A DNA stretch of 64,000 nucleotides from Myxococcota bacterium (GCA_039028615.1 JBCCHT010000029.1:99042-163041); one strand, 5' to 3'; shown: positions 10,797 to 54,671, counted from the stretch's first letter. Numbers and translations: made by a program. Notes: a model not told the origin generated them from the sequence alone.

Positions 10797-12152
10797 TCAG
10801 ATCCCGATCAGAACCGTGGCCAGCCAAAAATAGAAGAGGAGCCCCATGACATCGACCGAGGTGGTGACGAAGGGACCGGTGGCCACCGCCGGGTCGACCC
10901 CGAATCGATCGAGGACCAGCGGGGTGCAGGTACCGACCGCCGCGGCGATGGTCATCGAGCCGGCCGTGCCCAGCATCACCACCGCCCCCAAGCGGAGCGG
11001 GTCGACCTCGTTGGCCACGGCCGTCGACGCCAAGGCGATGAGCAGGCCGTAGAGCAGCCCGAGCGAAGCGCCCAGAGAGACTTCGCGAACGACCAGGCGA
11101 CGCACCCGGCTCGCCTCGACGAAACCGACGGCCAGACCGCGAACGACGATGGTGGAGCTCTGCATGCCCACGTTGCCGCCCATGCCCGCGACGACCGGCA
11201 TGAAGAACCCGAGAGCGGGCACGGTGGCGAGCGCATGGTCGAAGCTGGACAGTGACAGCGCGGCGGCCGTGCCCCCGATCGCGGCGGCCAGGAGCCAGCG
11301 CCAGCGCACCCGAAAGCTGCCCACGAAGGTGCGGACCTCGGCGAGTTCTTCACCCGCGCCGGCCATCTTGAGGATGTCCTCGGTGGCCTCTTCTCGGATG
11401 ACGTCGACGATGTCGTCGACCTCGACCACGCCGAGCATCACGTCGAACTCGTCGATGACGGGGACCGCCACCAGGTCGTAGCGCATCACCAGGTCGGCCA
11501 CGTCCTCCTGGTCGGTGTCGGCGGTGGCCCGCACCACCTCGCGCTCCATGACGTCGCGGATCCTCTGGCTCGAGCGGCTGATGACCAGCATGCGCAGCGA
11601 GCAGACCCCCACGAGCCGGCCGTCGACGTCGACCACGTACACGTAGAACGCGGTCTCGGGCGGCTCCTCTTCGTCTTGGATCATCGCCAGGGCGTCGCCG
11701 ACGGTGGCGTCGGGCGAGACCTGGAAGTACTGCGGCGACATGATGCCGCCCGCGGTGTTCTCGTCGTACGCGAGCAGCTCCTCGAGCTCGTTGGCGTCGT
11801 CCTCGTCGAGCCGCCCCAGGATCTTCTGCAGCTGCTCTTCATCGACGCGGCCGAGGATGTCGACCGCGTCGTCGACGTCGAGGTCGTCGAGCAGGCTCGC
11901 CGCTTCCTCGGGCACCAGCTGCGCCACGAGCTCGGCCGCCGTCTCGTGGCGCATGGCCTCGAGCACTTCCGAGCGCCGATCCAGCGGCAGCAGCTGCATG
12001 ACCCGCAGCTGATCGTCGACATCGAGGTTGTCGAGCTGGCTGGCGACCTGGACGTCGTCTTGACGCTGCAGCGTGCGACGCAAGCGACGGCTGTCTCCCG
12101 CACGCAACAGCGTGTGGATCACCTGGATCTTGCGCGTGCGGGTCCCGACCAT
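10797..12152 (-). CDS. mgtE: Magnesium transporter MgtE
   Basis: N-domain, CBS pair (TAGGIMS; YDLVAVPVID), TM motifs GMGGNVGMQS and DPAVATGPFVTTSVD. Stop codon abuts the recO ATG. Confidence 0.95.
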   Translation of the reverse strand: MVGTRTRKIQVIHTLLRAGDSRRLRRTLQRQDDVQVASQLDNLDVDDQLRVMQLLPLDRRSEVLEAMRHETAAELVAQLVPEEAASLLDDLDVDDAVDILGRVDEEQLQKILGRLDEDDANELEELLAYDENTAGGIMSPQYFQVSPDATVGDALAMIQDEEEPPETAFYVYVVDVDGRLVGVCSLRMLVISRSSQRIRDVMEREVVRATADTDQEDVADLVMRYDLVAVPVIDEFDVMLGVVEVDDIVDVIREEATEDILKMAGAGEELAEVRTFVGSFRVRWRWLLAAAIGGTAAALSLSSFDHALATVPALGFFMPVVAGMGGNVGMQSSTIVVRGLAVGFVEASRVRRLVVREVSLGASLGLLYGLLIALASTAVANEVDPLRLGAVVMLGTAGSMTIAAAVGTCTPLVLDRFGVDPAVATGPFVTTSVDVMGLLFYFWLATVLIGI

Positions 12153-18239: not shown

Positions 18240-18298
18240 CGGGTGACGGATCGGAGCCCGACTTTCGATCGCCGACGGACCATGACTACCATCCCGGA

Positions 18299-18880
18299 AT
18301 GTCGTCGGACGCCGAGCTCTTCGCTGCGTGGTGTGAGGGCGACAACAAGGCCGGGAACGACCTCCTCAAGGGACACTTCGAGCGTCTGCTTTGTTTCTTC
18401 AACAACAAGGCCGGCGACAACACCGAGGACCTCATCCAGCAGACGATGATGGCCTGCGTGCAATCGCGGGCCAAGCTGCGAGACCACTCGAGCTTCCGCG
18501 CCTTCTTGCTGCGAATCGCTCGCAACAAGCTCTTCGATTTCCTGCGCTCGCAGTCGCGCAACCGCGTGGACTTCGGCGTGTCGTCGGTCCACGACCTGCG
18601 CCCCTCGCCCAGCAGCCTGGTGGCCAAGGACCGAGAGCACGTCACCGTGCTCGAGGCCCTGCGCTCGCTGCCCGTGAACCTCCAGGTGGTGCTGGAGCTG
18701 CACTACTGGGACGAGCTGAGCGTGCGCGAAGTGGGCGAGGTGCTCGAGCTGCCCGAGGGCACCGTCAAGGGGCAGCTCAAGCGAGGCCGCGAAGCACTGG
18801 GCCGTGAGCTGCGACGACGCACGGGCCCGCACGCGGAGCTGGTGGTCGCGATGCAGCGCAGCCGGCCCCGAGGGGCCTGA
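18299..18880 (+). CDS. ECF sigma factor divergent from the Ser/Thr kinase
   Basis: TEDLIQQTMM, SSFRAFLLRIARNKL, LELHYWDELSVREVGEVLELPEGTVKGQLKRGR. Confidence 0.9.
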   Translation: MSSDAELFAAWCEGDNKAGNDLLKGHFERLLCFFNNKAGDNTEDLIQQTMMACVQSRAKLRDHSSFRAFLLRIARNKLFDFLRSQSRNRVDFGVSSVHDLRPSPSSLVAKDREHVTVLEALRSLPVNLQVVLELHYWDELSVREVGEVLELPEGTVKGQLKRGREALGRELRRRTGPHAELVVAMQRSRPRGA

Positions 18881-23229: not shown

Positions 23230-25365
23230 CTACGGCCGGAACGGGAAGCCGGCCGAGAACCCGGCGACGAAGGTCACGCCCTCGTTGGCGAAATCCGGGA
23301 CGCCGTCGATCTTCTTGCGGGCGCTCCACTGCTGGCGCACGCCGATCACGATCGACGCGTAGTTGGTGATGCGAGCCTCGAGCCCGGCATGGAGTTCGAA
23401 GCCCGGGCGCGCCACCACGTCGACCAAGCGCTCGCTGTTGAACCGGTCGTAGTCCAGTCGGATGACGTCGAGCCCGAAGCCCAGCCCGGCGTAGGGGCGC
23501 AGCGGGAAGCGGTCGAAGAGATAGACGTTGCCACCCAGGAACAGGGGCACGGTCGTGTAGTTGAACGCCTCGGCGTCCCCGGTGAGTTTTCCGGTGTCGC
23601 GGTTGAAGGTCGCCACGCCGCCCTCGTAGCCGGTGCGGAAGTACCCGAGCCAGCGCGGATAGTCGCTGCGGCTGCGGGCCTCGAACAGCTGCCACCGCAC
23701 GTCGAAGCCCCGCTGCTGATGGCACAGGTTGCCGTCGGTGGGCACGAGGCAGGCTCGGGTGTCGTTGGCGGTGAAGCGCGTGGTGGAGGGCGATAGATCC
23801 GAGCGGCGGTTGAACGGCGTGAACGTGGTGCCGAAGTACAGGCCACCCCAGGTGCGCTTGTGCGGCATGCGAATGCGCCGACGAGGCCGGTCGTCGTCAT
23901 CGTCGTCATCGTCGTCGGTGATGATCTCGACCGACTCGCCGTCGACCGACACGACCACTCTGTCCGGCCCGTGCTCCTGCTCGAGCGCATCCTCGGGCGC
24001 CGCGGTCTCGGTGATGCTCGAGCCCTCGGTCGGCCCCTGCCAGCGCGGCTCGGCCACCGCCAACAGCCCGCGCTGCGACGTATAGCCGTTGTAGTAGCCC
24101 GGGCCGAAGGGCGTGGAGAACAAGCCTCGGCGGAATGCTTGATCGAGCGACCCGCGAGCGGCCGAAGCGGCGGGCGTGAACCCCAAGTGATGGGCGAACA
24201 GCACGCCCCGCTGGTCGGACGCCAGCTGGGCCTCTTGTCGCTCTTGGTCGCCTTCCTGCCGGGAGATGAACAGCTCGCCGTCGGGGATCCGCAGGTAGCC
24301 GTATTGCTCGCCCGTGCGATGCAAATCGGCCAGGCGAACGCCGCGGGAATCCTCGATGGTGTAGCGGCTCTGATCGCCGGGGCCGAAGAGCAGGACCCGA
24401 TGGTCGGCGACTCGACCGTGCTCGACGACCGACGCTCGCTGGTCGTCGACGGGCGGGCGGACCACGACCTCGAGCCGCGCCCGCGGATCGTCGACGCCGT
24501 GGTTGGCGGCGGAGACGAAGCCCCCCAGCTCGCTGTACTCGATGCGACCGTCGCCGTTGAGGTCGGCGCCCCCGCGCAGGCCGCTGACCAGCTCGTGGGT
24601 GAAGATGCCGCCGCGATAGCGGTCCCACTCGTGGGTCTGCTGATCGGCCGAGTGCGCCAGGATGACTCCCGTGTTGGGGAACCCGCCCAGGTGGCTCTTG
24701 TCGAGGTACTCCTCGACCGAGCGGCTTAGATCGACGGTGGAGCGATCGGGCTTCCAGTCCTTGCCGCGCGAGAGCACGAACTGCTCGCTGCGGCAGGCGT
24801 CGATGATGATGTGGTTGTGGTCGGCGACGGAGCGCGACAGCAGCTTGCCGAACAGCTTCTTGCGGGTGAGCTTGGCGTCGTCGAGGGTCAAGAAGCCCTG
24901 GCCGTCGGGGCCCACGTCGCCGTGGCCCGAGTAGTAGACGAGCAGCTCGACCTCGTCGCCGCGCTCCTTGGCCCGCTTCATGCGGCCGAGCAGCGCGGTA
25001 TAGCCCGACTCGAGCCCCGCGTCGTCGGGGCGATGCGCCCGCGAGACCAGCCCGGGAAACAGCGCCTGGCTGTCGCGATCGAGCTGCGTCACCAGCTCGG
25101 TATCCACGCCCAGCTCGACCAGTAGCTCGGCGATCCGAGCCGCGTCGTCATCGGCGAAGCGCAGCGGGTCTTGGCTCGGATCGAGGGTGTGGTTGCTCCC
25201 GATCACCAGAGCAAAGCGCCGGGTCGACGCTTCGGCCGCCTCGGGGCTCGGCGACTCGGCCTCGGGTTCCACGGCCCGAGCATCCGCGGAAGTTCCGATC
25301 GAGACGAGCCCGCCCGCGAGCAGGGACAGGGCGAGGGCACAGCGGCGAAGGCGGAAATCGAACAT
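23230..25365 (-). CDS. Secreted caspase-family (peptidase C14-like) protein with C-terminal outer-membrane beta-barrel
   Basis: Signal peptide; RRFALVIGSN, LRFADDDA, YYSGHG (His), IIIDACRS (Cys), GGIFTHELVSGLRGGADLNGDGRI; C-terminal amphipathic strands (LRPYAGLGFG, FELHAGLEARI, FVAGFSAGFPF). Confidence 0.85.
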   Translation of the reverse strand: MFDFRLRRCALALSLLAGGLVSIGTSADARAVEPEAESPSPEAAEASTRRFALVIGSNHTLDPSQDPLRFADDDAARIAELLVELGVDTELVTQLDRDSQALFPGLVSRAHRPDDAGLESGYTALLGRMKRAKERGDEVELLVYYSGHGDVGPDGQGFLTLDDAKLTRKKLFGKLLSRSVADHNHIIIDACRSEQFVLSRGKDWKPDRSTVDLSRSVEEYLDKSHLGGFPNTGVILAHSADQQTHEWDRYRGGIFTHELVSGLRGGADLNGDGRIEYSELGGFVSAANHGVDDPRARLEVVVRPPVDDQRASVVEHGRVADHRVLLFGPGDQSRYTIEDSRGVRLADLHRTGEQYGYLRIPDGELFISRQEGDQERQEAQLASDQRGVLFAHHLGFTPAASAARGSLDQAFRRGLFSTPFGPGYYNGYTSQRGLLAVAEPRWQGPTEGSSITETAAPEDALEQEHGPDRVVVSVDGESVEIITDDDDDDDDDRPRRRIRMPHKRTWGGLYFGTTFTPFNRRSDLSPSTTRFTANDTRACLVPTDGNLCHQQRGFDVRWQLFEARSRSDYPRWLGYFRTGYEGGVATFNRDTGKLTGDAEAFNYTTVPLFLGGNVYLFDRFPLRPYAGLGFGLDVIRLDYDRFNSERLVDVVARPGFELHAGLEARITNYASIVIGVRQQWSARKKIDGVPDFANEGVTFVAGFSAGFPFRP

Positions 25366-25386
25366 GGTGACTCCGGGACCGAACGA

Positions 25387-26280
25387 CTAGCGAGGGGCGA
25401 GGGGCAAGGCCAGCTCGGCGGCGTGGCAATCGGATGGCGAGGGGCAGACGCGGGCGAGACTGCTTTGGTTCACCCGTTGGACCCACGGACGGTCCCCGGG
25501 ATTCGCGGCGGACTGTGACGCGAGTTCCATCGTCCACTCGCGCACCTGCTCGACGGTGGGGACCGAGGGCGAGACGAGGGCGTAGACCCGCAGCGGTCCG
25601 GCCGAGTGATTGACGGACAGGCGCACCGACATGGGCGCCGCGTGCCAGCGTCCCGGCACGATGTCGACCGCCGCCGCGTCGACCGGCGTGGGCGCATAGA
25701 ACATGGGGTCGCCCTCGGCGTCGACTCCGAAGAGCGTCAGGTGACCGTCGACCTCCGGCTCGACCCGGTAGGCAAAGCCCAAGACGTCGGCCAAGCCGCA
25801 CTCGCGCACGCGCAGCGATCGTTCCGAGCCCAGCTCGGTCGCGCACAGGACCTCGATGCCCAGCGACCCGGTGGAGGCCTGGCCCCGCGCTTGCCAGCCG
25901 TCGTTGCGGCCCTCCCACCAGGGCTGCAGCGAGTCCCCGTCACGGATGGGGCTCACCCACAGCAGCACCAACGCGGCCATCAAGGCTCCGGCCAGGGCGG
26001 CCCAGGGGCGACGGCTGCGCTCGGCGACCGTCTCCGCCTCGGGGGCGGTCCCCCACTCGTCGGCCAGCCAGCGCCCCACGATGTCGACCTCGGAGGGGGC
26101 AAAGGCGCTGTCGCCCTCGAAGATCCGCAGCGCCGCCACGGCTCGGTCGTAGCGCGCCCGGGCGGCCTCGTCCTCGCGGAGCCGGGCGTGCAGACGGGCG
26201 CGCTTGCGCGGCGACAGCCCGTCGGTGAGCTCGCGCTCGATCAACCGATCGAGGGCTGCGTCGCTGAGGCCCCGGGTCAT
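25387..26280 (-). CDS. Putative single-pass anti-sigma factor
   Basis: ATGA overlap with the sigma gene; N-terminal helical ZAS-like region lacking Cys; TM WAALAGALMAALVLLWV; WQARG; extracytoplasmic beta domain. Confidence 0.7.
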   Translation of the reverse strand: MTRGLSDAALDRLIERELTDGLSPRKRARLHARLREDEAARARYDRAVAALRIFEGDSAFAPSEVDIVGRWLADEWGTAPEAETVAERSRRPWAALAGALMAALVLLWVSPIRDGDSLQPWWEGRNDGWQARGQASTGSLGIEVLCATELGSERSLRVRECGLADVLGFAYRVEPEVDGHLTLFGVDAEGDPMFYAPTPVDAAAVDIVPGRWHAAPMSVRLSVNHSAGPLRVYALVSPSVPTVEQVREWTMELASQSAANPGDRPWVQRVNQSSLARVCPSPSDCHAAELALPLAPR

Positions 26281-27008
26281 CGCAGCACCCCTCCCAAAAG
26301 CTCGGCCAACGAGGCGCCCATCAGCGGCAGGACCAGGCTCGCGGGGACCAGCCCCTCTTCGCCTTGCTTGCGCAAGAAACGGAGCATCTGCTGGCGGAGC
26401 TTGGTCTCGCGACCCCGCACGCGTTGCCGACCCAGCCCCAGGGCGTCGGCCGCATCGCGCTGCGACTTGCCTTCGACGAAGCGCAGCTCGAGCAACCGGC
26501 GATCGTCTTTGGGTAGCGTGTCCAAAAAGCGCTGCACCACGCCGCGAATCTGCGCTCGGCCGACCTCTTGCTCGGGTGTCTCACGCGTCTCGTCGACGAT
26601 CTCGATGGAGGAATCGGCGGCCTCGCCGTCCTCGCGAACCTCGGGGAACTGGACCTCCCGGGCCCGAAACCCGCGGAGCACCACGTTGCGAGCGATGGCC
26701 CGCAGGTAGGGACCGTAGGGGCGCAGACCGTCGTAACGCTCGCGCGCGCGCGGCTCGAAGGCGCGGCGGAAGGTCTCGTGCAGGGCGTCGTGAAGCTCGA
26801 AGGCGGAGCGGTAGCCGACGAAGCGGTGATGACGACCCGCCGACTGGAAGCTGAAGCCGTAGCGGAGCTGGGCGGTCACATCGTCGGCGTGGCGGCGATA
26901 GACCTCGCCCATCGCCGAGGTGCGCCCTTCGCGGAAGTCGCGTAGAAGGCCCCAGGACCACCCATTGGGCGCGATCTCGGACGGAGCGGGCGAAGACGAC
27001 ACGGGCAC
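26277..27008 (-). CDS. ECF sigma factor
   Basis: Region 2 HDALHETFRRAF...PYLRAIARNVVL; region 4 DDRRLLELRFVEGKSQRDAADALGLGR. Confidence 0.88.
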   Translation of the reverse strand: MPVSSSPAPSEIAPNGWSWGLLRDFREGRTSAMGEVYRRHADDVTAQLRYGFSFQSAGRHHRFVGYRSAFELHDALHETFRRAFEPRARERYDGLRPYGPYLRAIARNVVLRGFRAREVQFPEVREDGEAADSSIEIVDETRETPEQEVGRAQIRGVVQRFLDTLPKDDRRLLELRFVEGKSQRDAADALGLGRQRVRGRETKLRQQMLRFLRKQGEEGLVPASLVLPLMGASLAELLGGVLR

Positions 27009-44069: not shown

Positions 44070-45716
44070 CTACTCGGTGACCACCACGGGGCTCCCGGCG
44101 GGGGTGCCCTTGGTGGGCGAAGCCGCGTGCCAATCGGGAGGCAGGTGCGGCTCGGTGAAGCCGAACAGCCAACGCGCGTCGGAGGGCGAGAGATTGACAC
44201 AGCCGTGGCTGCGCACCTGCCCGAAGCCCGCGTGCCAAAACGCCCCGTGGAGCGCGACCGAGCCGGAGAAGTACTGCGTCCACGGCACATCGTCGATGCT
44301 GTAGGCCTCGTCCGCCTCGGGTTGATCGCGCATGGACGACGCCACCAGCTTGGTCTGCACCCGATGCACACCCACCGGGGTCATGCCCGCTTCCTTGCCC
44401 GTGGAGACCAAGGTGGCAAAGACGGGCACATCGCCCTCGTAGGCCACCAGGGTCTGCTCGGAGAGATCGACGTGGATCCAGTGCTCGTCCGCTTTGACGC
44501 CGGGCGGCCGCTTGAGCTTGTAGGCCTTGCCCACCGCGTAGCCGCGCATCAGCAGGCCCTCGTCGTCGACGTAGTAGACCTTGGGGCCCACGTGGATCTG
44601 GTCGACGAAGGGGTGCGTGGTGAGGCGGGCGGGCGTGGTCTCGGAGGGCAGCAGCACGTCGCTGCCTTCGGCCTCACGCTTCATCAGCGGGAGCTCGCGC
44701 CGAATGAAGTACAGCGGGAGGTCCTCTTTCCCGGCGAGCACGTGGCCGCGGAACTTGGGGCTCTCTTTTTGGCGGAGCTGGTATTTCCGGGCGTAGGCGC
44801 CGCGCAGGGTCCGAATGAAGCGTCGCTCCTTGCGAACCTCTTCGCCGCCCTTGGTCACGTAGTACCCGGAGTTCATGTACTGCTTGACCACCGAGGGCAC
44901 CTCGCCGGGACGCGTGGAGGTGTTGGTGGGCATGGGCGTGCGCTGGTGCTTGGCGTACCAGGCCTGCCCCGCGCCATCGGCTTGGTCCTGCTCGTTGAAG
45001 GTCGGCAGCCGGTGGAAGAACGGGGTCATCTCGTCCTTCACGCGCCAGTACTCGTAGGGCAGCGCTTGGTCGAGCTTGGGCTTGACCGAGGCGGTGACCA
45101 GGCTGCCCGCGGGCGGCGACTCGTCGACGCGCAGGCCGGCGCGACGGCAGATCCACCCGCGCGGGAAGACCTTGTTCCAGCCCGGCTCGCAGTGGCCACC
45201 AAAGGTGCGCTCGCCGTCGGTACGCACCCGGGTGCCCGCGTGCAGGACCCCGATGATCTCGGACTCGATCTCGGGACGCTCGCGCACCACCACCGCGAGG
45301 CTGGTGACCAAGCCGTGGTGCGTGTAGGTCGACTCCGCGTCCCCGTCGAACTCGCGCGGCTCTTCGTCGAAGATCGGCGGGTAGGACAGATAGTGCCCCT
45401 CCTCGTCGGGCTGCATGTACGGGGGTCGATCCTCGATGACGATCTCGTCGCCGTCGTCCTCGCCCGCGGGCTCCCCCTCGGCCCCGCCCTCGCCGTCGGC
45501 TGCCGCGTCGCCACCCGCGTAGGGGCTCGCCGCCGCGCCGTCGCCTCCTGGGCCGGCTGCGCCCGAGCGCCCCGCGGCCTCGGGATCGGCCGAACTCACG
45601 ACGGCGGCCGGGCTGCCCTCGGGTCCCGTGGGACGGCTCAGCTCGTAGCCCATGGCGACGACCCCGCCTCCAAGCAGGAATGAACCGATCATCTCGACGA
45701 TGCGACCGCTGTCCAT
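44070..45716 (-). CDS. L,D-transpeptidase family protein
   Basis: WIHVDLSEQTLVAYEG, VSTGK, ALHGAFWH...SHGCVNLS; N-terminal TM and an SH3-like region. Confidence 0.92.
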   Translation of the reverse strand: MDSGRIVEMIGSFLLGGGVVAMGYELSRPTGPEGSPAAVVSSADPEAAGRSGAAGPGGDGAAASPYAGGDAAADGEGGAEGEPAGEDDGDEIVIEDRPPYMQPDEEGHYLSYPPIFDEEPREFDGDAESTYTHHGLVTSLAVVVRERPEIESEIIGVLHAGTRVRTDGERTFGGHCEPGWNKVFPRGWICRRAGLRVDESPPAGSLVTASVKPKLDQALPYEYWRVKDEMTPFFHRLPTFNEQDQADGAGQAWYAKHQRTPMPTNTSTRPGEVPSVVKQYMNSGYYVTKGGEEVRKERRFIRTLRGAYARKYQLRQKESPKFRGHVLAGKEDLPLYFIRRELPLMKREAEGSDVLLPSETTPARLTTHPFVDQIHVGPKVYYVDDEGLLMRGYAVGKAYKLKRPPGVKADEHWIHVDLSEQTLVAYEGDVPVFATLVSTGKEAGMTPVGVHRVQTKLVASSMRDQPEADEAYSIDDVPWTQYFSGSVALHGAFWHAGFGQVRSHGCVNLSPSDARWLFGFTEPHLPPDWHAASPTKGTPAGSPVVVTE

Positions 45717-45817
45717 GCCTCGACGCTCCAGACGGCGGAACTTAGGGCAGCGGGCCTACAGGGGCAAGTGCGGCCCCGTAGCCGGGGTCGGCTTGCTCGC
45801 GAGGGGGGGCGTGGTCC

Positions 45818-46720
45818 ATGCTTGCCCCCGTGCAAGACCGCGGCAGCGCGCGCCGAACGAAGTCCAACGCCCGTAGCGTGTCCATGGGCGTCTCGACCGG
45901 AGCGGCCCTGATCCTCGCGACCGTCGCGGGCTCCGCGCAGGCTGCGATCGCTCCGGCGCCGGCCCCCGCGGCCGAAGCCCCGAGCGAGGCCGCGGCCACC
46001 CCGGCCCCGGCGAACGACGTCTCCGCCGACACGGAGGCGAGCCCGGCCGACGCGGGCGAGACGACGAGCGCACCGCCCGAGGAAGACTCCGCCGAGGCCG
46101 ACGCTCCATCGGACGACGCGACCGACGACGAGTCCGAAGAGACGGAAACGTCCGAGCCGGTCGAAGAGGCCGAGGCTCCCCGCCCGCCTCGCATCGACGG
46201 CGTGTACCTCGGCGGCATGGCCTTCGGCGGCATCGGCCTCATGCGCCTCAACGACATCCCCACCAGCGGGCCCTTCACCGCCTTCGGTGGCACCGCGACC
46301 ATCGGCCAGATGGTGTTCCCGTGGCTGGGCCTGGGCCTGACCGCAGGGGGAGCGGGCGGCGTACGCAGCGAGTCCGGTGCCCGCCAGACGCTCGGCCAAG
46401 GTCAGCTCGGCTTCGAGTTCAAGTTCGTGCCCCTGCCCAAGCGCATCCCGCTGAGCCTGCGCGCGTCGTTCGGTTTCGGCGGCGGTGCGGTGCGGCAAGA
46501 AGGCGTGGCCGCGCGCTCGGGCTTCGGCGGGCCGCAGTTCGGCGCCGCCGTGCGCTACGAGTTCTTCCCGTGGGCCAAGCGCTTCCGTCCCTTCAAGGGC
46601 GGCGGCTTCGGTCTGGGCCCCGAGCTCGGCTGGACCGGTTTCACCCCGGCCGCAGCGGGCCGCCCGATGTCGAACATCGTGTACCTCGCACTGTCGACGA
46701 CGTTCTACTTCGGCGACTGA
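45818..46720 (+). CDS. Putative small outer-membrane beta-barrel protein with acidic N-terminal linker
   Basis: Signal ...AGSAQA; Gly/aromatic alternating strands; C-terminal LSTTFYF; start may be 45884. Confidence 0.6.
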   Translation: MLAPVQDRGSARRTKSNARSVSMGVSTGAALILATVAGSAQAAIAPAPAPAAEAPSEAAATPAPANDVSADTEASPADAGETTSAPPEEDSAEADAPSDDATDDESEETETSEPVEEAEAPRPPRIDGVYLGGMAFGGIGLMRLNDIPTSGPFTAFGGTATIGQMVFPWLGLGLTAGGAGGVRSESGARQTLGQGQLGFEFKFVPLPKRIPLSLRASFGFGGGAVRQEGVAARSGFGGPQFGAAVRYEFFPWAKRFRPFKGGGFGLGPELGWTGFTPAAAGRPMSNIVYLALSTTFYFGD

Positions 46721-47622
46721 GCGCTCGCCTCGACGAGCATCTCGTAGGTCGTCGCCGTCCTCCATGCGGCCGAGCCTCGCGGCGGCTGCAGGTCGCTCGC
46801 CTCGATGCTGGCCCCCGGACGGAGCGGCAACGGACACGGGCACGGAAGGTCGCGAGGCTGCTGGCAGCCCGAGGCGTCGTCGGGCAGCGATCCGGCTCGC
46901 GCGATGATCACCTCGAGGGTCCAGCGGCCCGACCCCAGGCCCAGCGTCTCGCCGACGGCACCTCGCAGCTCGAGCACGCCGTTGTCCGACGCTCGCGTCA
47001 GCGACGGCCGGGCGAGGCACGACACGCCCTCGCCGCGCACGATTGCGGCCAGCTCCAGCGGCCCATCGACGGGCGCCTCGGGCTGAAACGACCAGTGAAT
47101 GCGGGAGTCGGGTCGATAGCGCGCGGGTCCGTCGTCGTGCGAGCCCTCGGCGCCGCGGATCTCGGCGACCGTGTCGTTGCGGACGGTCATGGAGAACGCG
47201 GGCAAGGGAGCGCCCGCCTCCGTCGGCACGCCGGGCTGCGGGCGCGCACGGATCCACAGCACGAGGGCGGCGGCGACCAACAGCGCCAACACGCCGCCAC
47301 CCCAGCGCAGGCGTGTTCGTCGGGAGTCGAGGTCGACGACGCCTGCGGGCGCCTCGACTTCGGCCGGGTCCTCGTCGTCCTCGTCGTCGGTGGTCTGCAG
47401 CGCGGCCTTGGCCCGGGTCGCCCACGCCTTGCGCTCTGCCCCGGTCAGGGGAGCGCTGGCCTGCGCCAGCGCGTCGAGGTCCTCGGGCTGCTCGCCGCGG
47501 GCTCGACCGCGCTCGGTCGCCTCCTGGCTCGTCGCGGTGCCCTCGAGGACCTCGTCCCACTCTTCGCCGGGTCGGCGTCGTCGCTCGACCTCGCCGAGCC
47601 TTCGCAGCAGTTCGTCGCTCAT
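46705..47622 (-). CDS. Putative single-pass anti-sigma factor
   Basis: Start MSDELLRRL, ATGA overlap with the sigma gene; VVDLDSRR before TM WGGGVLALLVAAALVLWI; EIRG; Cys-containing extracytoplasmic domain. Confidence 0.7.
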   Translation of the reverse strand: MSDELLRRLGEVERRRRPGEEWDEVLEGTATSQEATERGRARGEQPEDLDALAQASAPLTGAERKAWATRAKAALQTTDDEDDEDPAEVEAPAGVVDLDSRRTRLRWGGGVLALLVAAALVLWIRARPQPGVPTEAGAPLPAFSMTVRNDTVAEIRGAEGSHDDGPARYRPDSRIHWSFQPEAPVDGPLELAAIVRGEGVSCLARPSLTRASDNGVLELRGAVGETLGLGSGRWTLEVIIARAGSLPDDASGCQQPRDLPCPCPLPLRPGASIEASDLQPPRGSAAWRTATTYEMLVEASAQSPK

Positions 47623-48248
47623 CGTGCCTTGCTCCTGCCTTCGACCGGCTCGCGATCGATGTCCTCGGCCAGCGCCCGCACGACCTGGCGTAGCCGTACG
47701 TTCCACTGGTCGACCGCCGCCCGCGTCATCTCCATGGCCTGGCAGACCTCGGCCACCGGGCGCTGCTCGACGTACAGCAGCTCGAACAGCAGCTGGCTGC
47801 GTTCGTTGAACCGCGCCCGCAGCCGGGTCATCAGCCGCTCGAGCTGTTGCCGGGAGAGGATGCGGTCGAACACGTGCTCAGCCTCGACCGCCCGCTGCTC
47901 GACCGCCAGCGGCTTGCTGGCGGCGCCCCCTTCCCAAGGGTTGCCGCGGTAGCCCTCGAGCACCCGGGCCATGCGACGTCGCGCGAGCAGGCGGACGAAG
48001 CTGGACAGCGAGCGGCCGCGGTTCGGATCCCAGGCCCGGAGCCGGCGCCCGCGGTTGGACAGCAGCTGCACCAGCACGTCTTGCACGAAGTCGTCCACGT
48101 CCTGCCCCGCATCACGCCCGTAGATCGCGGCCCGACGGCGCAAGCCATACGTGACCTCGAGCCGAATGGGGGGCAGCACCCGCTCGATCAACGCCTCGAG
48201 GAGTTCGTCGTCCCCTTCGCAGGCGCGGCTGATCTCGACCGGGGTCAT
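47619..48248 (-). CDS. ECF sigma factor (start may be 48299 or 48314)
   Basis: DVDDFVQDV, WDPNRGRSLSSFVRLLARRR; region 4 LFELLYVEQRPVAEVCQAMEMTRAAVDQW. Confidence 0.85.
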   Translation of the reverse strand: MTPVEISRACEGDDELLEALIERVLPPIRLEVTYGLRRRAAIYGRDAGQDVDDFVQDVLVQLLSNRGRRLRAWDPNRGRSLSSFVRLLARRRMARVLEGYRGNPWEGGAASKPLAVEQRAVEAEHVFDRILSRQQLERLMTRLRARFNERSQLLFELLYVEQRPVAEVCQAMEMTRAAVDQWNVRLRQVVRALAEDIDREPVEGRSKAR

Positions 48249-48323
48249 GTCGAGGCTCGACGGTAACACCCCCAGCCGACTCTCATCGTGCACGAGCATG
48301 GGCAGACCAGACATGGGACGGAC

Positions 48324-50375
48324 TCAGGGCTGCAGGACGTCGATCTCGTTGCCGACCAAGATCGTCGAGTCGTCGGCGGCAACGTAAAACGAGACGGTGG
48401 CGGCCCGAAGATCGGTGGTGGCGACGTAGTCGGCCAGGGTCGCGTTGGCGAGGCTCGAGTCGGGATGCCGATACCGCGACAAGTCGATGTCACAAGACGA
48501 CAGGTGCTGGCTCGTCCCCGGGGACAAGGCGCACATGGTCTGGCCCGCGAGATCGAGGTCCACTCGAGTCACGCCCCCCGAGGTCGAGTGCAGCTCGAGC
48601 ACCGCCACCGAGTCCGGGATCTTCGGGCGGAAGTCGGCCTCGACCTCGAGCCGCACGCGGGCCCCCCCGCCGTTGGTGCCGTGCAGGGAGCACGTGGGAC
48701 AGATGGGCGAGTCCGGCTGCGGGTTCAGCTCGGGCCACGGGTCCTCGGAGGCCGAGGGCGCGCCCGAGAACGAATGGGTCCTGCACTCGCGATCGCCGTA
48801 GCTCACCGTCGACGACGGAGGCGTCAGCACCAGCAGGGTCGAAGCGGGGGCCCCGGACGACGGAGACTGCGTGGTCGACGGGTCGACCAGCGTCACCGAG
48901 GGCTCCGTGTAGTGGTCGGCGAGGACGGAGTCGGCCCGAATCAACGACACCGGATTCGAAGCCGCACATCCACCATCCACCGAAGAGCATGCGCCCGCCA
49001 TCGCGGCGATCACCTGTTCGGCCGACGCGTCCGGGTGCACGGCCCAGTACTGAGCCGCGATGGCGGACAGGGAGGCGCTGGCGACCGAGGTGCCGGTCAG
49101 CGGAGTCGAGTACTGTTCGTCACCCATCGGCACCGCGACGCGCGAGGCATAGAGCACCCGCTTCGGCTCGCTGAGCGGTCGGGCGTTGACGATGGGCTGA
49201 CCGTCGGCCCCGACCCCGCCCGCGGCGTAGACCACTCGGGCGGGATGGAAATCGCTCACGCTCCCGAGTTCCGTGGCATCCAGGAACCCTGCGCATTCTT
49301 GGAAGCTCGTGGCCGGCATGTCTTCCCACGCCGCCGGAGCCATGGGACCGGTCTGCGCACAGGCCCCGCCCCGCGTATTGCCCGAGGCGGCGATGCTCAG
49401 CACCCCCTGGCACGACGCCCACGTCAGGGTCAGGAACAGCGCTTCTTCGGCGGGGGTCAGCGCAGGGTGCCCGCCCCCTTTCCGACCGGCGAGCAAGTGT
49501 TCTCGGCTCCCCGTGAGGAACTCGGTGTCGTCGAGGCCCCACTCCCATCCCACGCTCAAGTTGAGTACCAGCGGGGTGTCGGTGTCGAGCCCTCGCCAGC
49601 GCTCCACCGCCCGCAGCACGGCGGCGTGGAGCGACCATACCGTGCCGCGATCTTCGAGCGTTCCGGGGAACGCCTGTTCGTAGAACCGCTGGTCGTCGTC
49701 ACACCCGAACGCGTCGTCGGGGCATCGGATCGCGCTGACGATGCCGCCCATGGTGAGCCCGTGCCGAGCCTTGGGTTGACCCGGCCAGCCCCCGTCGGCA
49801 TCGGCATCCGCGGCGGTGTCCACGATGGCGACGAAGGGCCGATCGTGATCGTCGATGACGGGCGCGCCTTGGCCGAATGCAGCGCCCAGCTGCGCTCGAA
49901 ACGATGCATAGCGGGCTTTGTCGGTGCCCCGTGTGTACTCGGCTTGGGGAAGCACCCGGGGATAGTCCGCGGCGACCTGCTCCACGACCCCGGCCGGCAC
50001 ACTCCACGCGGGCGCCGTCGGGGTCTCGATGCCATCGGGCACTTGGTACGCGCAGTATCGCGCCAACTTGGCGGTCATCGGCCCCGAAGAGACGGCCACG
50101 GGTGGCGTCGCTTCCCATCCCGCGGGCGGGGCCGGGCACGTCCGCCCAGGTGTGATCTTGGCGACGAAACTTCGGAACGGGCGATCCGGGGTGGACTCGA
50201 TCGTCACTGGACCGAGGGGGCCATCGCCGTCGTCCGTGTCCTGTCCGGTCCCAGAATCGGTGTCCGTACCCGTCTCGTCGGGTTTCGGGTCGGGCGGGCA
50301 TCCACACCGAGCTTGGGAGGAACACGCAGCCACGGCGACGACGGTGGCCAAAGAGAGGTGACGGGCAGACGGCAT
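48324..50375 (-). CDS. Lipoprotein S8 (subtilisin-like) serine peptidase
   Basis: Lipobox VAVAA-C; catalytic VAIVDT (Asp), HGLTMG (His), LNLSVG, AASGN (oxyanion Asn), GTSVAS (Ser); Cys-rich C-terminus PQPDSPICPTC. Confidence 0.8.
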   Translation of the reverse strand: MPSARHLSLATVVAVAACSSQARCGCPPDPKPDETGTDTDSGTGQDTDDGDGPLGPVTIESTPDRPFRSFVAKITPGRTCPAPPAGWEATPPVAVSSGPMTAKLARYCAYQVPDGIETPTAPAWSVPAGVVEQVAADYPRVLPQAEYTRGTDKARYASFRAQLGAAFGQGAPVIDDHDRPFVAIVDTAADADADGGWPGQPKARHGLTMGGIVSAIRCPDDAFGCDDDQRFYEQAFPGTLEDRGTVWSLHAAVLRAVERWRGLDTDTPLVLNLSVGWEWGLDDTEFLTGSREHLLAGRKGGGHPALTPAEEALFLTLTWASCQGVLSIAASGNTRGGACAQTGPMAPAAWEDMPATSFQECAGFLDATELGSVSDFHPARVVYAAGGVGADGQPIVNARPLSEPKRVLYASRVAVPMGDEQYSTPLTGTSVASASLSAIAAQYWAVHPDASAEQVIAAMAGACSSVDGGCAASNPVSLIRADSVLADHYTEPSVTLVDPSTTQSPSSGAPASTLLVLTPPSSTVSYGDRECRTHSFSGAPSASEDPWPELNPQPDSPICPTCSLHGTNGGGARVRLEVEADFRPKIPDSVAVLELHSTSGGVTRVDLDLAGQTMCALSPGTSQHLSSCDIDLSRYRHPDSSLANATLADYVATTDLRAATVSFYVAADDSTILVGNEIDVLQP

Positions 50376-50463
50376 GTCCGGCCCCTATCCATGCGGGACG
50401 CTCCGTCCAACGCGGCATTCGAAAGAAAAAACGAGTTTGTGCATAGATGGGTAGAATCGGCCG

Positions 50464-53139
50464 GTGCGGCGGGTCTGGGTGGCCTTGTGGCTGTGGAGTG
50501 CGGCGTGTGGGGGCCCCGCGGCGCCCGAGACTGGAGCCGAGGCGAAACGCCCTGCCCCCGCGCCCGCGGCTCGGCCCCTGCGCCCGTTGAAGGTGCTCTT
50601 CGGTGGCTGTGTGGAGCCGGGGCCGGGACCCACCTGCGGGCTGAGTGGCGAACGCCGCGAGCTGACGCTGTGGGTCGACGAGCCATCGCCCGACGACGTC
50701 CGGCTCCAGGTCGACGGTGCGACCGTGACCGGGGAGGTCATCGAGGTCGAGCACGGTCTGCGGTGGACCCTCGACATCCCGCCCGGCGCCACCCGCCTGA
50801 CGGTCCATCGGCCGTCCTCCGACGACGCGGAGGCGTTCTCCCTCGCCTTGCCGACGCTCGAGCCCGAGGCCGTGGATGGAGCGGAGGCGCTCCGTCACGA
50901 GGCGCTGGCGGCCTACGGCGAGCGAGACCTCGATGCGATCGAGGCCGTCATCGACCGCGCCCGACGTCGGCGGTCGTGGTCCGTGGCCGCGCAGTGGCTC
51001 CACAGCCTTGCGTTTCAGGCCATCGTCGAGCAGCGCGACCTGTCGCTCGGGCGACAGCGGCTGGACGAAGCCACCGAGGCGCTGCCCTACGAGGACGCGA
51101 CCCACCTGTATTTCCGGGGGCTCCTCGCCGAACAACGCGGCGACGTCGGAGAAGCGACCGTGGCGTACCGAGACGCGGCGCACCAGGCCCGGGCCCTGGG
51201 CGCCGGCCTCGCCCCGGTGTTGATGCTGGCGGTGTTGGGCCGCACCGCGGTGATGTCGGCCCACGCCACAGACCGGGCGTCGACCCTCGAGGCGATCGAG
51301 CACGGGTTGGCCGTCGCTCGTTCCACGTTCGTCGACGATGACTCGCGGGCCAGCTTTCTCAACTCTGCGGCGTGGTCGCTGCTCATGCTGGACACGTCGC
51401 CCGGCCGCGCTCGCGCCTTGCTGGAGCGCAGCCGCCAGCTGCTGGGGCCACGGCCCGAAGGGCGCGATGCGTGGTTCACGGTTCGGCTGAACCTCGCCTA
51501 CGAAGCCCTCGAGCGCGGCGCCCCCCATGACGCCAGACGTTGGCTGGCTCCTGTGGCGGATCGACGAATGATCCGAGCCAACGAGCTATGGCACGGGCTG
51601 CTGCAGGCCCGACTCGAGCGGCAGCAGGGCGCCCCGGAGGCGGCCGGGCGCCGCTTGCAGGCCATGCTCGCCTCGGCGGATCGACTCGGAGATCATGGTC
51701 TTCGTTGGGCGGCCCGGGTGGAGCGAGCCCGGGCGCTCGAGCACAGCGGTCGGGTGCCCGAGGCCTTGGCCGAGTACGCGCAGGCCGACCGCGTGCTCGA
51801 GCAACAGCTGCCGCGGCTCGGCATGGATGATCGAGAGCGGTTCCTGCTGGGACGACACGCCGTGGCGCAGCGCCGCGTGGAGCTGTTGCTCGACGGAGGT
51901 GACCCAGACGCGGCGCTGTGCGTGGCTCGGCTCGCTCGCACCCGTGCGCTACGTTCGCTCGATCAACGCGTGAAGCGGGACGCCGACCCGGTCACGCGCC
52001 GCGCCCTCGACGACTACCTCGGTACGCGCCTTCGGCTGGACAACGCGTATGACGACACCTTCGACATGGTGGGCGCCGCCGCAGCCGACCGACGCCGCCG
52101 AGAGATCGACCGCGAGCGCGAGGCCAACGAGCAACGCTTCGAGTCCGTGATGCGAGGCCCTGGCCTTCAGGGTGCCGCCCCGCCCGATTGCGATGCCCTG
52201 TCTCGTCCCCCCGAAGGAGGGCTGGACCTCCACTTCGTGAAGCTCGAGCGCAGCTGGGTCGGATTCGCCGTCGACGACGGCGGCACGACGACGCCACGAA
52301 CGCTGTCGGACCCGAGCGCGGCCCTCGACTCGGGCGACGCGGTGCGGCTGGGGCAGGTGCTGCTCGAGCCCTTTGCCCCCCAGCTTCGAGCAGCCTCGCG
52401 CCTACGGATCATGGCTTCGGGCGCACTCTATGGCGTGCCCTTCCATGCGTTGCCGCTCGGTGCGGACGAGCCTTGGCTACGAGCCGACCGTGCCGTCGTC
52501 TACGGACTCGACCTCCCTCGCGTACGCACGCGAACAGACGAAGTCACCGGGGCGGCGTTGGTCTTGGAGCCGCCGAGCAACCTCCCCAACGCCCATGAAG
52601 AGGCCGAATTCGGCATTTCCGGGCTTCGCCGACGCGGCGCCACGGTCGTCTCGCTGAGCGACGACACGAGCACCACTGCCCGCGTTCTCGCCGAGCTCCC
52701 GCGCGCGTCCTGGCTCCACTACGTCGGGCACGCACGCTCCAACGGCCTCGGCGGCTGGGACAGCGAGCTGGTGCTCGCCGCCGACGGCACCGCGGTGGTC
52801 GGGGTGGCGGACGTGCTCGCCCTGCCGGCCGTGCCCTCGGTGGCGGTGCTCAGCGGTTGCCAGACCGGGGTGCTCGACCCCCACTCCCAAAGCGGCGGCA
52901 TGAGCCTCGCCCACGCGTTCTTGCTCGCCGGGTCGGACATCGTCGTCGCCACCACCGAGAAAATCCGCGACGACGAGGCGCTGTCGCTCATGCGCGACTT
53001 CTACGAAGCGCTCGACGGGTTGGACGACGACGCGGTCTCCCGCGCCCTCGCGAGCGCCCACCGTCGAGCAATCGACACGGAACGATCCGCCCCGCCGCAC
53101 ACGACGGCGTGGCACTCGGTCCGCGCCTGGGTCCCCTGA
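50464..53139 (+). CDS. Lipoprotein TPR-CHAT (caspase/HetF-associated) protease
   Basis: Lipobox LWSAA-C; TPR-like helices; CHAT motifs LYGVPFHAL, LHYVGHA (His), VLSGCQTG (Cys), SLAHAFLLAG, LMRDFY. Confidence 0.87.
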   Translation: MRRVWVALWLWSAACGGPAAPETGAEAKRPAPAPAARPLRPLKVLFGGCVEPGPGPTCGLSGERRELTLWVDEPSPDDVRLQVDGATVTGEVIEVEHGLRWTLDIPPGATRLTVHRPSSDDAEAFSLALPTLEPEAVDGAEALRHEALAAYGERDLDAIEAVIDRARRRRSWSVAAQWLHSLAFQAIVEQRDLSLGRQRLDEATEALPYEDATHLYFRGLLAEQRGDVGEATVAYRDAAHQARALGAGLAPVLMLAVLGRTAVMSAHATDRASTLEAIEHGLAVARSTFVDDDSRASFLNSAAWSLLMLDTSPGRARALLERSRQLLGPRPEGRDAWFTVRLNLAYEALERGAPHDARRWLAPVADRRMIRANELWHGLLQARLERQQGAPEAAGRRLQAMLASADRLGDHGLRWAARVERARALEHSGRVPEALAEYAQADRVLEQQLPRLGMDDRERFLLGRHAVAQRRVELLLDGGDPDAALCVARLARTRALRSLDQRVKRDADPVTRRALDDYLGTRLRLDNAYDDTFDMVGAAAADRRRREIDREREANEQRFESVMRGPGLQGAAPPDCDALSRPPEGGLDLHFVKLERSWVGFAVDDGGTTTPRTLSDPSAALDSGDAVRLGQVLLEPFAPQLRAASRLRIMASGALYGVPFHALPLGADEPWLRADRAVVYGLDLPRVRTRTDEVTGAALVLEPPSNLPNAHEEAEFGISGLRRRGATVVSLSDDTSTTARVLAELPRASWLHYVGHARSNGLGGWDSELVLAADGTAVVGVADVLALPAVPSVAVLSGCQTGVLDPHSQSGGMSLAHAFLLAGSDIVVATTEKIRDDEALSLMRDFYEALDGLDDDAVSRALASAHRRAIDTERSAPPHTTAWHSVRAWVP

Positions 53140-53234
53140 AAAACTCGCGTTGGATTCCACCGGAGGTCCGGCAATGGAGGGCTGGCGTCACGAGGACGCC
53201 ACCTTCAACGCCCACCTCATCAACGGAGTCCATC

Positions 53235-53750
53235 ATGACCACACCGACCTATATCTCCGACAACCTCACGTCCAACCGCTTCAGCCGCCTGCCCGCCGAT
53301 CGCCTGCAGCTCGTGCTCTTCTATGACGGCCGCGGCGAGTCTTCGTTCGGCTTCGAATACAAAGACGCCTCCGGCACCGTCGGCTGGATCAACGTGTCGG
53401 GCATCCCGCCCTTCAGCCGCATCGTGACCAAGGAGTACGACCTGAAGGGCTGCACGCTGACCGGCAACTTCATCGTCGAAGGCGTCGTCCCCAACGGCGT
53501 GGTCGATGGGCTCGCCTTCGGCCTCATGTGGCGCGACGGCGATCAGCACTATCACATCCTCCGTAGCAACGCGCCCGTGCCCACCAAGACGGCGAGCTTC
53601 GTCAGCGCGTGGCCGCTGGGCATGAACGGCTCCACCTTCGGCTCGCGTGCCCCTCAGCTCACCGACTGGTGCGCCCGCGAGACGGCACTGGCCGTCATCA
53701 GCGGCGCCAAGCTGCTGCCCAACGGCAAGTACCGCATCGACGTCCTGTGA
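53235..53750 (+). CDS. Hypothetical beta-rich protein, 171 aa
   Basis: RBS-like GGAG 5 nt upstream of ATG; clean C/G third-position usage; no signal peptide; no family recognised. Confidence 0.75.
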   Translation: MTTPTYISDNLTSNRFSRLPADRLQLVLFYDGRGESSFGFEYKDASGTVGWINVSGIPPFSRIVTKEYDLKGCTLTGNFIVEGVVPNGVVDGLAFGLMWRDGDQHYHILRSNAPVPTKTASFVSAWPLGMNGSTFGSRAPQLTDWCARETALAVISGAKLLPNGKYRIDVL

Positions 53751-53819
53751 CTCGGCTGGTCCCGGGGCGCGGCACGACGACGGCAGTGCCGTGCTCCGGG
53801 CACCCGCCCCTTCGCCGGC

Positions 53820-54671
53820 TCAGGCCATGGCGGCGCGGCGCTCGAACTTCACCGGCTCGTTGGGCTGCGGGACCGCGAGGTCGTCGCCCAAAAAGCGCAC
53901 CATGGCCACGGTGACGTTGTCGGGCCCGCCCGCGGCACAGGCCGCCTCGGTGAGCACTCGGCAGCATCGCACCGGGTCGTCGTGGCGCAGCATGTGATCG
54001 AGGACCTGGCGATCCGAGAGCGGACCGGTGAGCCCATCGCTGCACAGCATGAGGGTGTCGCCCGCTCGGATGGAGACCCGCACGAGGTCGGGCCCCACCC
54101 GATCCTGCACGCCGATGGCCTCGAGCAGCACGTTGCGCTGCTTGAAGTTCCGCGCGTCCTCGGGCTTGAGCTTGCCCGCCGCGATCATCTGCCCGACGAC
54201 GTTCTGATCCATCGTGAGCTGCTGGAGCATCCGCCCCCGCCGCAGATAGGCCCGCGAGTCACCGACCTGGACGATCATGACCTCGTTGCCCATCAGCATC
54301 GCCGCGGTCATCGTCGTGCCCATGCCGCGCTTGTCGGGGTGGCGCTTGGTGAACTGGCTGATGGACTGGTTGGCCTGCGTGACCGCGGCCAGCAGCATGC
54401 GCTCGACCTCGCCGATGTCGTTGACCGAGTGCTGACGCGCGACCTCTTCGAGGGCGTCGATGGCCATGCGCGAGGCCATGTCGCCAGCCGCCGCTCCGCC
54501 CATGCCGTCGCAGACCGCCACGAGCGTGCCGGGGCGCCGCAGCTCGCGGTTGCGCTGGTCGGGCCGGATGGTGCGGTCGCCCGTGCTCAGGTCGAGCACG
54601 AGGAACGCGTCCTCGTTGCGCTCGCGAACGCAGCCGACCTCGGTCCGAGCAAAGATCTCGATGTGCGCCAT
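53820..54671 (-). CDS. PP2C/PPM-type Ser/Thr phosphatase (Stp1/Pph1-like)
   Basis: GCVRERNEDA, VCDGMGG, GMGTT, VGDSRAY, LCSDGL, GGPDNVT. Confidence 0.95.
   Translation of the reverse strand: MAHIEIFARTEVGCVRERNEDAFLVLDLSTGDRTIRPDQRNRELRRPGTLVAVCDGMGGAAAGDMASRMAIDALEEVARQHSVNDIGEVERMLLAAVTQANQSISQFTKRHPDKRGMGTTMTAAMLMGNEVMIVQVGDSRAYLRRGRMLQQLTMDQNVVGQMIAAGKLKPEDARNFKQRNVLLEAIGVQDRVGPDLVRVSIRAGDTLMLCSDGLTGPLSDRQVLDHMLRHDDPVRCCRVLTEAACAAGGPDNVTVAMVRFLGDDLAVPQPNEPVKFERRAAMA

Follow-up and report, generated by a model that had tools for sequence, protein, structure and literature searches.

The stretch analysed here, called the window, comprises 64,000 nucleotides of a Myxococcota bacterium (GCA_039028615.1, JBCCHT010000029.1:99042-163041), and all positions refer to it. 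It contains a block of five genes. Genes for an S8 subtilase (48324-50375), a sigma factor of the extracytoplasmic function (ECF) type (47619-48314) and a single-pass membrane protein (46705-47622) lie on the minus strand; genes for a TPR-CHAT protease of clan CD (50464-53139) and a 171-residue protein, here termed the orphan (53235-53750), lie on the plus strand. The CHAT and S8 genes are arranged head-to-head with 88 bp between their start codons (50376-50463), and the sigma stop codon overlaps the ATG of the membrane-protein gene as ATGA (47622-47619). An earlier annotation made from the DNA alone (the sequence-only reading) had proposed these genes, the catalytic codons, the gap and the overlap, and every coordinate agreed with the sequence. 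GC content was level over the whole block, and the flanking genes encoded an L,D-transpeptidase, a PP2C phosphatase and FHA proteins. We consider it probable, although by no means assured, that the block encodes a split form of the DdvS-DdvA switch of Myxococcus: exported CHAT would release the sigma factor by cleaving its predicted anti-sigma factor after Arg156, with the S8 operon and the 171-residue gene as predicted targets.

The CHAT protein (891 residues, GTG start) consists of a signal sequence followed by Cys15, an N-terminal beta domain, helical repeats and a CHAT domain at residues 628-883, which scored 94.5 bits against PF12770 (cut-off 24). Its sequence displays a catalytic dyad of His756 (codon 52729) and Cys799 (codon 52858), and both residues were retained in 11 of 11 aligned paralogues of the window genome. 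Pfam TPR models did not match the window CHAT protein at E 0.1, and its TPR-like repeats were detected only with a family profile. When the CHAT profile was compared with the PDB, DdvA came out as the best solved CHAT relative (E 1e-13), with Csx29 and separase behind it. By a crude rule of our own, used in place of SignalP, the lipobox-like signals reported in the sequence-only reading (SAA-C15 in CHAT, VAA-C18 in S8) were present. By the same rule, 31 of 52 CHAT relatives carried a lipobox-like cysteine and 11 more a hydrophobic N-terminus; the corresponding numbers for S8 relatives were 58 of 76 and 12. Some CHAT paralogues were apparently anchored by a transmembrane (TM) segment rather than a lipobox. 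Because of these paralogues, and because one relative is fused to the anti-sigma-like protein (see below), CHAT probably faces the inner membrane.

The S8 protein (683 residues) carries a signal sequence followed by Cys18, a prodomain ending near VLPQ144 and a C-terminal beta-sandwich. The catalytic residues read from the sequence are Asp186 (49820), His205 (49763) and Ser430 (49088), with Asn333 (49379) as the oxyanion residue; all four were conserved at 99-100% among 83 S8 relatives. The score against PF00082 was 18.4 bits, under the gathering cut-off of 21.8, and the family profile matched mycosins and subtilisins of the PDB (best E 4e-10); judged by these comparisons, the window S8 is a divergent subtilase subfamily. 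Its most conserved junction was the VxPQ that follows the prodomain, a likely site of self-cleavage.

The sigma factor, starting at 48314, 48299 or 48248, scored 43.8 bits against the NCBIfam ECF model TIGR02937 (cut-off 42.9) and did not match DdvS in the PDB at E 1. Its translationally coupled partner (305 residues) belongs to no Pfam or NCBIfam family. It is predicted to be an anti-sigma factor from its adjacency to sigma and from its topology, namely an acidic cytoplasmic N-terminus of ~105 residues, a TM helix at about residues 107-124 and a beta-rich periplasmic domain. A fused form was found in Acidobacteriota (L025:1596-5105, +). Here an N-terminus with the zinc motif HxxxCxxC, a TM segment, the periplasmic domain of this family, TPRs and CHAT share a single frame of 1170 residues that is not interrupted by another signal sequence; an S8 gene follows. 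This layout (anti-sigma, TM, periplasmic domain, TPRs and CHAT in one frame) is that of DdvA. A second candidate fusion, L078, was rejected, as it looks like a frameshift artefact and has a lipobox of its own. Next to the anti-sigma gene lies a gene (45818-46720, +) whose end overlaps it by 16 bp. The product is a secreted protein that contains an acidic linker and has a beta-barrel-like C-terminus with YFGD as its last residues; it had no Pfam match and was not found in orthologous loci.

In a neighbourhood survey of the kind suggested in the sequence-only reading, the four-gene linkage recurred in loci from the same taxonomic family and from outside it. Among S8 loci of the family, CHAT was found within ~7 kb in 40 of 56 and all four genes in 33 of 56. 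The corresponding numbers were 19 and 10 of 20 for loci from other families of the phylum, and 25 and 19 of 26 in a scan of named genomes, of which 7 loci repeat family loci. The window genome (12.27 Mb) holds 15 CHAT-domain genes, and by our arithmetic a CHAT gene would lie within 7 kb of a random gene with a chance of about 2%, as against the 40 of 56 and 19 of 20 observed; the linkage is therefore not a matter of chance. Starting from the membrane protein, 92 of 98 anti-sigma-like genes had a sigma gene adjacent, 83 had CHAT nearby and 80 had both. Linkage counts were lowered by short contigs and, as the relatives are not independent by kinship, are descriptive and not tests; eight repeat loci were removed before the lipoprotein-signal, gene-order and later counts. 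Gene order and orientation were highly variable between cassettes, yet the genes remained together. The exact five-gene block was found again in three genomes (G002, G004 and G005), each time with different flanks. The five-gene neighbourhood is thus a conserved sigma/membrane-protein/TPR-CHAT/subtilase module.

Of 36 genomes of the same taxonomic family, 25 contained the S8 family; it was absent from 24 genomes taken from elsewhere in the class, and a draw of 300 further genomes from the phylum yielded it in 23. Named relatives were Nannocystaceae (Paraliomyxa, Nannocystis), other Myxococcota and Acidobacteriota, which makes a Nannocystaceae-type myxobacterium the very likely host. In the window genome itself the anti-sigma-like family was matched 12 times and the S8 family 5 times, and about a dozen paralogous cassettes are present. 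In one paralogous cassette a repeat-rich gene of 440 residues with no Pfam family lies between CHAT and S8 (L002 ~4280-5602, -; G000 C25). Two more sigma/anti-sigma-like/CHAT clusters, of a type that differs from the window family, were seen at G000 C20:70567-74637 and C23:167930-172313.

The residue predicted to be recognized by CHAT is Arg156 of the anti-sigma-like protein (codon 47155-47157, -), the P1 position of a putative cut in EIR/GA about 30 residues past the TM helix. In 107 anti-sigma-like proteins this column was Arg in 87%, the surrounding loop was variable, and the residue after the conserved Arg was mostly small. In 90 anti-sigma/CHAT pairs, Glu713 (codon 52600) and Asp836 (codon 52969) were the CHAT columns that best separated partners of Arg-type from those of non-Arg-type proteins. 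Glu713 was present in 79 and Asp836 in 69 of 80 Arg-type pairs, compared with 2 and 0 of 10 non-Arg pairs (one misaligned row was reassigned by eye for these counts). In held-out loci of other families, Arg was found in 11 of 11 (one shifted by a column), Glu713 in 11 of 11 and Asp836 in 10 of 11. The S1 pocket of clan CD proteases is built from helix 1, L4 and L5 (PMC4357240), and by sequence Glu713 and Asp836 would fall in the first and the last of these elements. Csx29, which cuts after Met or Leu, has no Asp at the Asp836 column. The equivalence of Asp836 with the Arg-binding Asp2151 of separase was considered and rejected, since Asp2151 aligns four residues later (our alignment and PMC9729208). 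As the two predicted S1 residues are acidic and track Arg156, they point to Arg156 as the cut site. We regard the covariation as good but not decisive evidence that CHAT contacts the Arg loop and as indirect evidence of cleavage. A quick IQ-TREE search gave a tree that required only two changes, one in a long-branched clade of nine and one in L149. L149 alone had Leu together with Ala713 within a well-supported clade whose 8 other members retained Arg and Glu.

Predicted promoters point to the genes under control of the sigma factor. A family motif, CGTCA(t/g)(c/a)-N15-G(a/c)CAAnGG, lay upstream of 27 of 49 head-of-unit S8 genes; scores above 12 bits were reached by 2% of ~400 random upstream regions and 1% of 98 CHAT genes. 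The motif emerged only when head-of-unit genes and two-block counting were used. Single-block expectation maximization on unfiltered upstream regions gave nothing convincing and picked up the coding ends of upstream genes. On the window sites the family matrix scored 0.2 bits (S8) and 8.8 bits (orphan). A variant of the window clade, CGCGTTGGA-N15-GGnWAnGG, preceded both S8 and the orphan in the same register in all four genomes. In the window it reads CGCGTTGGA-N15-GGATAGGG before the S8-sigma-anti-sigma unit (50383-50414, -) and CGCGTTGGA-N15-GGCAATGG before the orphan (53146-53177, +), with the same register or site in G002, G004 and G005. With a matrix built from six non-window sites of three genomes, the orphan site ranked first (24.0 bits) and the S8 site fifth genome-wide, among 192 genome matches above 13 bits; the site ranked second precedes a remote lipoprotein gene. 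The latter encodes 366 residues, belongs to no Pfam family and has three paralogues (L192:1538-2638, G000 C10). Exact matches to the pattern numbered 2 in G000, 3 in G002, 2 in G004, 3 in G005 and 0 in G032, with 0 for the reversed control; 6 of these 10 were sites used to build the pattern, and the four new ones precede two lipoproteins and, further off, two Ser/Thr kinases. No sigma-type promoter was found before the window CHAT gene, and no sigma-70-type promoter in 46400-54000. Because the bipartite motif precedes the S8 operon and the orphan and not CHAT, the S8-sigma-anti-sigma unit and the orphan are probably targets of sigma and CHAT probably is not.

Between the predicted promoter and the orphan, the 5' untranslated region contains a hairpin (~53183-53201, +) that was found in four genomes with some compensatory changes among the four sequences. 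The orphan protein has no signal peptide and no Pfam or NCBIfam match. It belongs to a small unnamed family of 42 proteins, mostly of 171-173 residues, for which a beta-sandwich was predicted with confidence. Foldseek gave no match at E 0.001, and the best VIA-align scores (Z 6.5, a lectin, then PLAT-type domains) were within the range of common folds. In two metagenome loci (L135:5272-6501 and L138:314-1939) the orphan domain was found at the C-terminus of a BlaR1-like M56 peptidase, which suggests that it may be a ligand-binding domain. The sequence-only reading had taken the orphan for a part of the system. The gene is indeed present, while its status as a core part was rejected: it occurred in 4 of 100 other genomes, beside a cassette in only 3 of them, all of the same genus, and never adjoined a cassette gene in 10 metagenome loci, most of which were short. 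It is probably recruited cargo, a target gene rather than a core part.

Taken as a mechanism, the split switch would operate as follows. Both proteases would be exported and tethered to a membrane, and a signal would be perceived by the TPR region of CHAT. CHAT would then act as site-1 protease and cut after Arg156, read by Glu713 and Asp836 as the covariation suggests. An RseP-type protease, assumed by analogy with DdvA, would subsequently cut within the membrane and release sigma. Peptidase_M50 matches above cut-off were present in the window genome; the M50 family is universal, so that its presence says little. To judge from the promoter motifs, the freed sigma would drive the S8-sigma-anti-sigma unit, the orphan and one or more remote lipoprotein genes, and CHAT would be expressed separately as a standing sensor. 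In the least supported step, the P-rich CxxC element of the S8 tail, or the small protein that replaces it (see below), would act back on CHAT, in the simplest case as a brake induced by sigma; our confidence in this step is far below that in the core mechanism.

Several observations weigh against this scheme, which draws on sequence, covariation and promoter motifs. The covariation comprises only two independent switches, and the larger one is the long-branched clade, in which other positions changed too and 4 of 9 members keep an acidic residue at 713. Asp836 is replaced in 11 of 80 Arg-type cassettes. The membrane protein has no known anti-sigma domain, and of 49 relatives only the fused L025 carries a zinc motif; L025 is itself one metagenome-assembled record, and fusions occurred in 0 of 20 further loci. 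Sigma and anti-sigma genes stood without CHAT in the fetched flanks in 12 of 92 cases. The window promoter variant was first spotted by eye after the family matrix had missed the S8 site, and all four genomes that supplied it belong to one genus.

The S8 protease appears to be one occupant of a swappable fourth slot. All S8 proteins of the window genome end in a PQPxxPxCxxC motif plus an FN3-like domain. In the window S8 the motif (residues 552-562; 48690-48722, -) opens the C-terminal FN3/immunoglobulin-like domain (model pLDDT 89). In place of S8, cassettes lacking it usually encoded a small exported protein in which a P-rich CxxC motif occurs once. In 80 complete cassettes, S8 was present in 39, a small CxxC protein in 27 (six recognized by hand), both in none and neither in 14, several of these at contig ends; the S8 share may be inflated, as loci were first collected by S8 searches. 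Nine cassettes had initially been scored as empty; in 6 of them a gene for a signal sequence plus CxxC lay directly behind CHAT, compared with 30 of 300 random flanks. The slots of L144 (3030-3263, -) and L145 (~10610-10840, +), directly behind CHAT, hold genes for lipopeptides of ~78 residues with little beyond the P-rich CxxC motif, which were likely missed by annotation. The S8 tails and the small proteins matched in HHalign (probability 84, E 8e-6). Once the motif was removed, the similarity fell to E 0.013-0.03, control level in view of 0.04-0.8 for unrelated beta domains. These comparisons do not demonstrate homology of the two beta domains (probability 32 in a shallow comparison; the deep comparison was motif-dependent), and from these alignments only the motif, not the domain, appears to be shared. 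Foldseek gave no match for the S8 tail at E 0.001, and its best VIA-align score (Z 7.3, FN3-type) was within the range of common folds. The family promoter matrix exceeded 12 bits in 4% of 23 small-protein genes, and a separate motif count for these genes, run without shuffle control, gave weak candidates.

Conceivably, and we offer this tentatively, the periplasmic caspase-like protease has a dedicated and exchangeable regulator of its own in the P-rich CxxC element, be it a bacterial securin or a peptide agonist. The element would take the form of a bare lipopeptide, a small secreted protein or the tail of a subtilase able to release or destroy it, and the cassettes would be insulated channels. 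A different scheme has the element as the activating input of the whole system: the CxxC peptide of the small protein, or that of the tail, which S8 would release or display, would bind the TPR region and turn CHAT on, as a self-amplifying or cell-to-cell signal. The nearly always filled slot with its mutually exclusive occupants, the almost bare lipopeptides of L144 and L145 and the genes behind CHAT in cassettes first scored as empty are in line with this idea, as is genome G027, where the fetched flanks of 10 of 12 S8 genes were devoid of cassette genes (one of the ten lies at a contig end) and 9 of these ten had no promoter. The similarity between tails and small proteins, however, does not outlast removal of the motif, 14 cassettes have neither protein, and sigma-driven expression suits an output or a brake at least equally. 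We thus judge an activating input to be unlikely. The stand-alone S8 genes of G027 (L087, L091, L092, L094, L095, L102, L103, L114, L118 and L119) have similar tail motifs.

About as unlikely is a two-protease cascade, in which CHAT would activate the S8 zymogen or S8 would be the site-1 protease of the anti-sigma factor. S8 does occupy almost half of the complete cassettes and is a neighbour of CHAT in 19 of the 20 loci from other families (9 of these had no sigma or anti-sigma matches in the flanks), and a CHAT acting on a second protease has a precedent in the SAVED-CHAT/PCaspase of Haliangium (10.1101/2023.06.23.546230). The cut of the S8 zymogen by CHAT had been part of the switch proposed in the sequence-only reading and is not supported by the data gathered here. 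S8 is missing from 41 of 80 complete cassettes, S8 itself carries a sigma-type promoter, and the sole Arg conserved in at least 75% of 83 S8 proteins, Arg399, lies inside the catalytic domain. It is the Arg of the anti-sigma-like protein that tracks the CHAT residues, and nothing in the sequences suggests that CHAT activates S8. Two other parts of that interpretation were supported: a CRISPR-independent module of exported CHAT, anti-sigma and ECF sigma is present with conserved linkage, and CHAT is likely the protease of the TM protein.

A somewhat weaker case can be made for CHAT as a co-repressor that binds the Arg loop with no cut required, its release exposing the anti-sigma factor to housekeeping proteases. 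Covariation speaks for contact and not for catalysis, and the TPR-CHAT domain of DdvA blocks RseP and has its own site in a resting state, while its autoproteolysis is no more than a proposal (PMC11506125). Yet His756 and Cys799 were each kept in 81 of 81 Arg-type CHAT partners, and the mostly small residue after the Arg is what a cut site would have; a purely binding role is improbable. Very improbable is that the TM protein is a membrane adaptor or protease substrate instead of an anti-sigma factor and that sigma is controlled otherwise, as proposed for ECF54: the protein lacks a family match, and ECF54 has no recognized anti-sigma and a suggested proteolytic control (PMC8999054), but the ATGA coupling, the +1 position in 92 of 98 cases, the anti-sigma-like topology and the zinc anti-sigma-type motif of L025 all argue otherwise.

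The split switch finds its closest precedent in DdvS/DdvA, not in Craspase. In this system of Myxococcus xanthus (PDB 8rot, 8rw5) the ECF sigma factor DdvS is held by a single-pass anti-sigma, which in DdvA is fused to a periplasmic TPR-CHAT with a His-Cys dyad, the proposed site-1 protease ahead of RseP (PMC11506125, PMC6061681). The window module shares the ECF sigma beside a single-pass membrane partner and the periplasmic-type TPR-CHAT with its His-Cys dyad. It differs in that TPR-CHAT is a separate, divergent gene, its product predicted to be lipid-anchored here and TM-anchored in some paralogues, and fused only in L025; that the anti-sigma-like protein has a small periplasmic domain of its own and no zinc (CHCC) motif; that the cassette contains a fourth exported gene (S8 or CxxC protein) and exists in about a dozen copies per genome; and that the genes predicted to be under its control encode S8, the orphan and a lipoprotein, whereas the DdvS regulon consists of genes of CRISPR-Cas and of the cyclic-oligonucleotide-based antiphage signalling system (CBASS).

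A sigma gene near a subtilase and TPR-CHAT, as in the window, has been described for ECF54 with a suggested regulatory or response role (bioRxiv 2019.12.11.873521, PMC7826278 supplement, PMC8999054). According to the latter two sources, ECF54 is 100% actinobacterial, has no putative anti-sigma, is followed at +1 by a carboxypeptidase-regulatory-like domain and uses the promoter GTATCAG / CTCC. The hosts of the window module are myxobacteria and Acidobacteriota, a TM partner stands at +1, and the predicted promoters are CGTTGGA / GGnWAnGG (window clade) and CGTCA(t/g) / CAAnGG (family), with only a TCAG core similar; the comparison drew on published descriptions of ECF54.

In Craspase (Csx29-Csx30-CASP-sigma, type III-E; PMC9729208, PMC10028731), a cytoplasmic TPR-CHAT cuts a sigma-binding protein and is activated by Cas7-11 with target RNA, cutting after Met or Leu (PMC9729208). 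A TPR-CHAT protease cutting a sigma-binding protein is common to both systems, the cut being only predicted for the window module. Unlike Craspase, the window module has no Cas7-11, Csx30 or Csx31 beside TPR-CHAT, and its proteases are of exported type, with a lipobox-like or hydrophobic N-terminus in 42 of 52 CHAT relatives (own rule, not SignalP). The SAVED-CHAT of Haliangium, likewise from a myxobacterium, is also associated with a second protease, with a sigma factor and with the small regulator PCi; it is, however, cytoplasmic, activated by cA3 and linked to type III-B CRISPR, and its second protease is a caspase (10.1101/2023.06.23.546230). Eukaryotic separase, a TPR-CHAT-like protease that cuts after Arg, is controlled by its small binding partner securin (PMC11506125, PMC9729208); its Arg-binding Asp2151 has no acidic counterpart in the window CHAT, and the parallel between securin and the CxxC element is an analogy only.

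Nothing in the sequence points to a role in phage defence. No cas- or CBASS-type Pfam match was obtained among 41 window proteins scanned, the five genes gave only one weak hit in PADLOC and no matching Craspase model, and no CRISPR-like array was found in 45600-54200. Elsewhere in the window lies a second trio of sigma factor, single-TM protein and exported clan CD protease (23230-26912, -), made up of a sigma gene (26912-26277), a gene for a TM protein with a weak DUF4384 match (26280-25387) and a gene for a Peptidase_C14 protein with a signal-like N-terminus (25365-23230). A Ser/Thr kinase with TPRs (18110-15495, -) is divergent from an ECF sigma gene (18299-18880, +), a kinase-type ECF pairing within 15495-18880.

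The module is assembled from known parts: the linkage of sigma, subtilase and TPR-CHAT was known from ECF54 and the periplasmic TPR-CHAT from DdvA. The split form is undescribed in the literature searched, where no paper on a split lipoprotein TPR-CHAT/anti-sigma/S8 cassette was found in a search that did not extend to most subscription papers, the DdvA supplement and part of the ECF supplement. For DdvA, the role of a periplasmic CHAT as site-1 protease is unproven, and its authors expect that it can be validated only after identification of the signal. In the split form, enzyme and substrate would be separable and the scissile bond is predicted (Arg156); specificity could be controlled for with naturally occurring Arg-to-Leu variants whose pockets changed to match, and a reporter could be built on a predicted promoter. 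The mechanism that has until now only been proposed for Myxococcus DdvA could thereby be tested directly. It would also offer an explanation for the long-noted neighbourhoods of sigma, subtilase and CHAT, in which the subtilase would be placed downstream of sigma. If the CxxC element does regulate CHAT, this would put a name to the control so far missing for an exported caspase-like protease. The approximately one dozen cassettes per genome, with matched changes in CHAT pocket and anti-sigma loop, would then be insulated extracellular protease-cascade channels, the stand-alone S8 expansions would be extra inputs, and these bacteria would signal at the cell surface through a caspase system that has a ligand family of its own.

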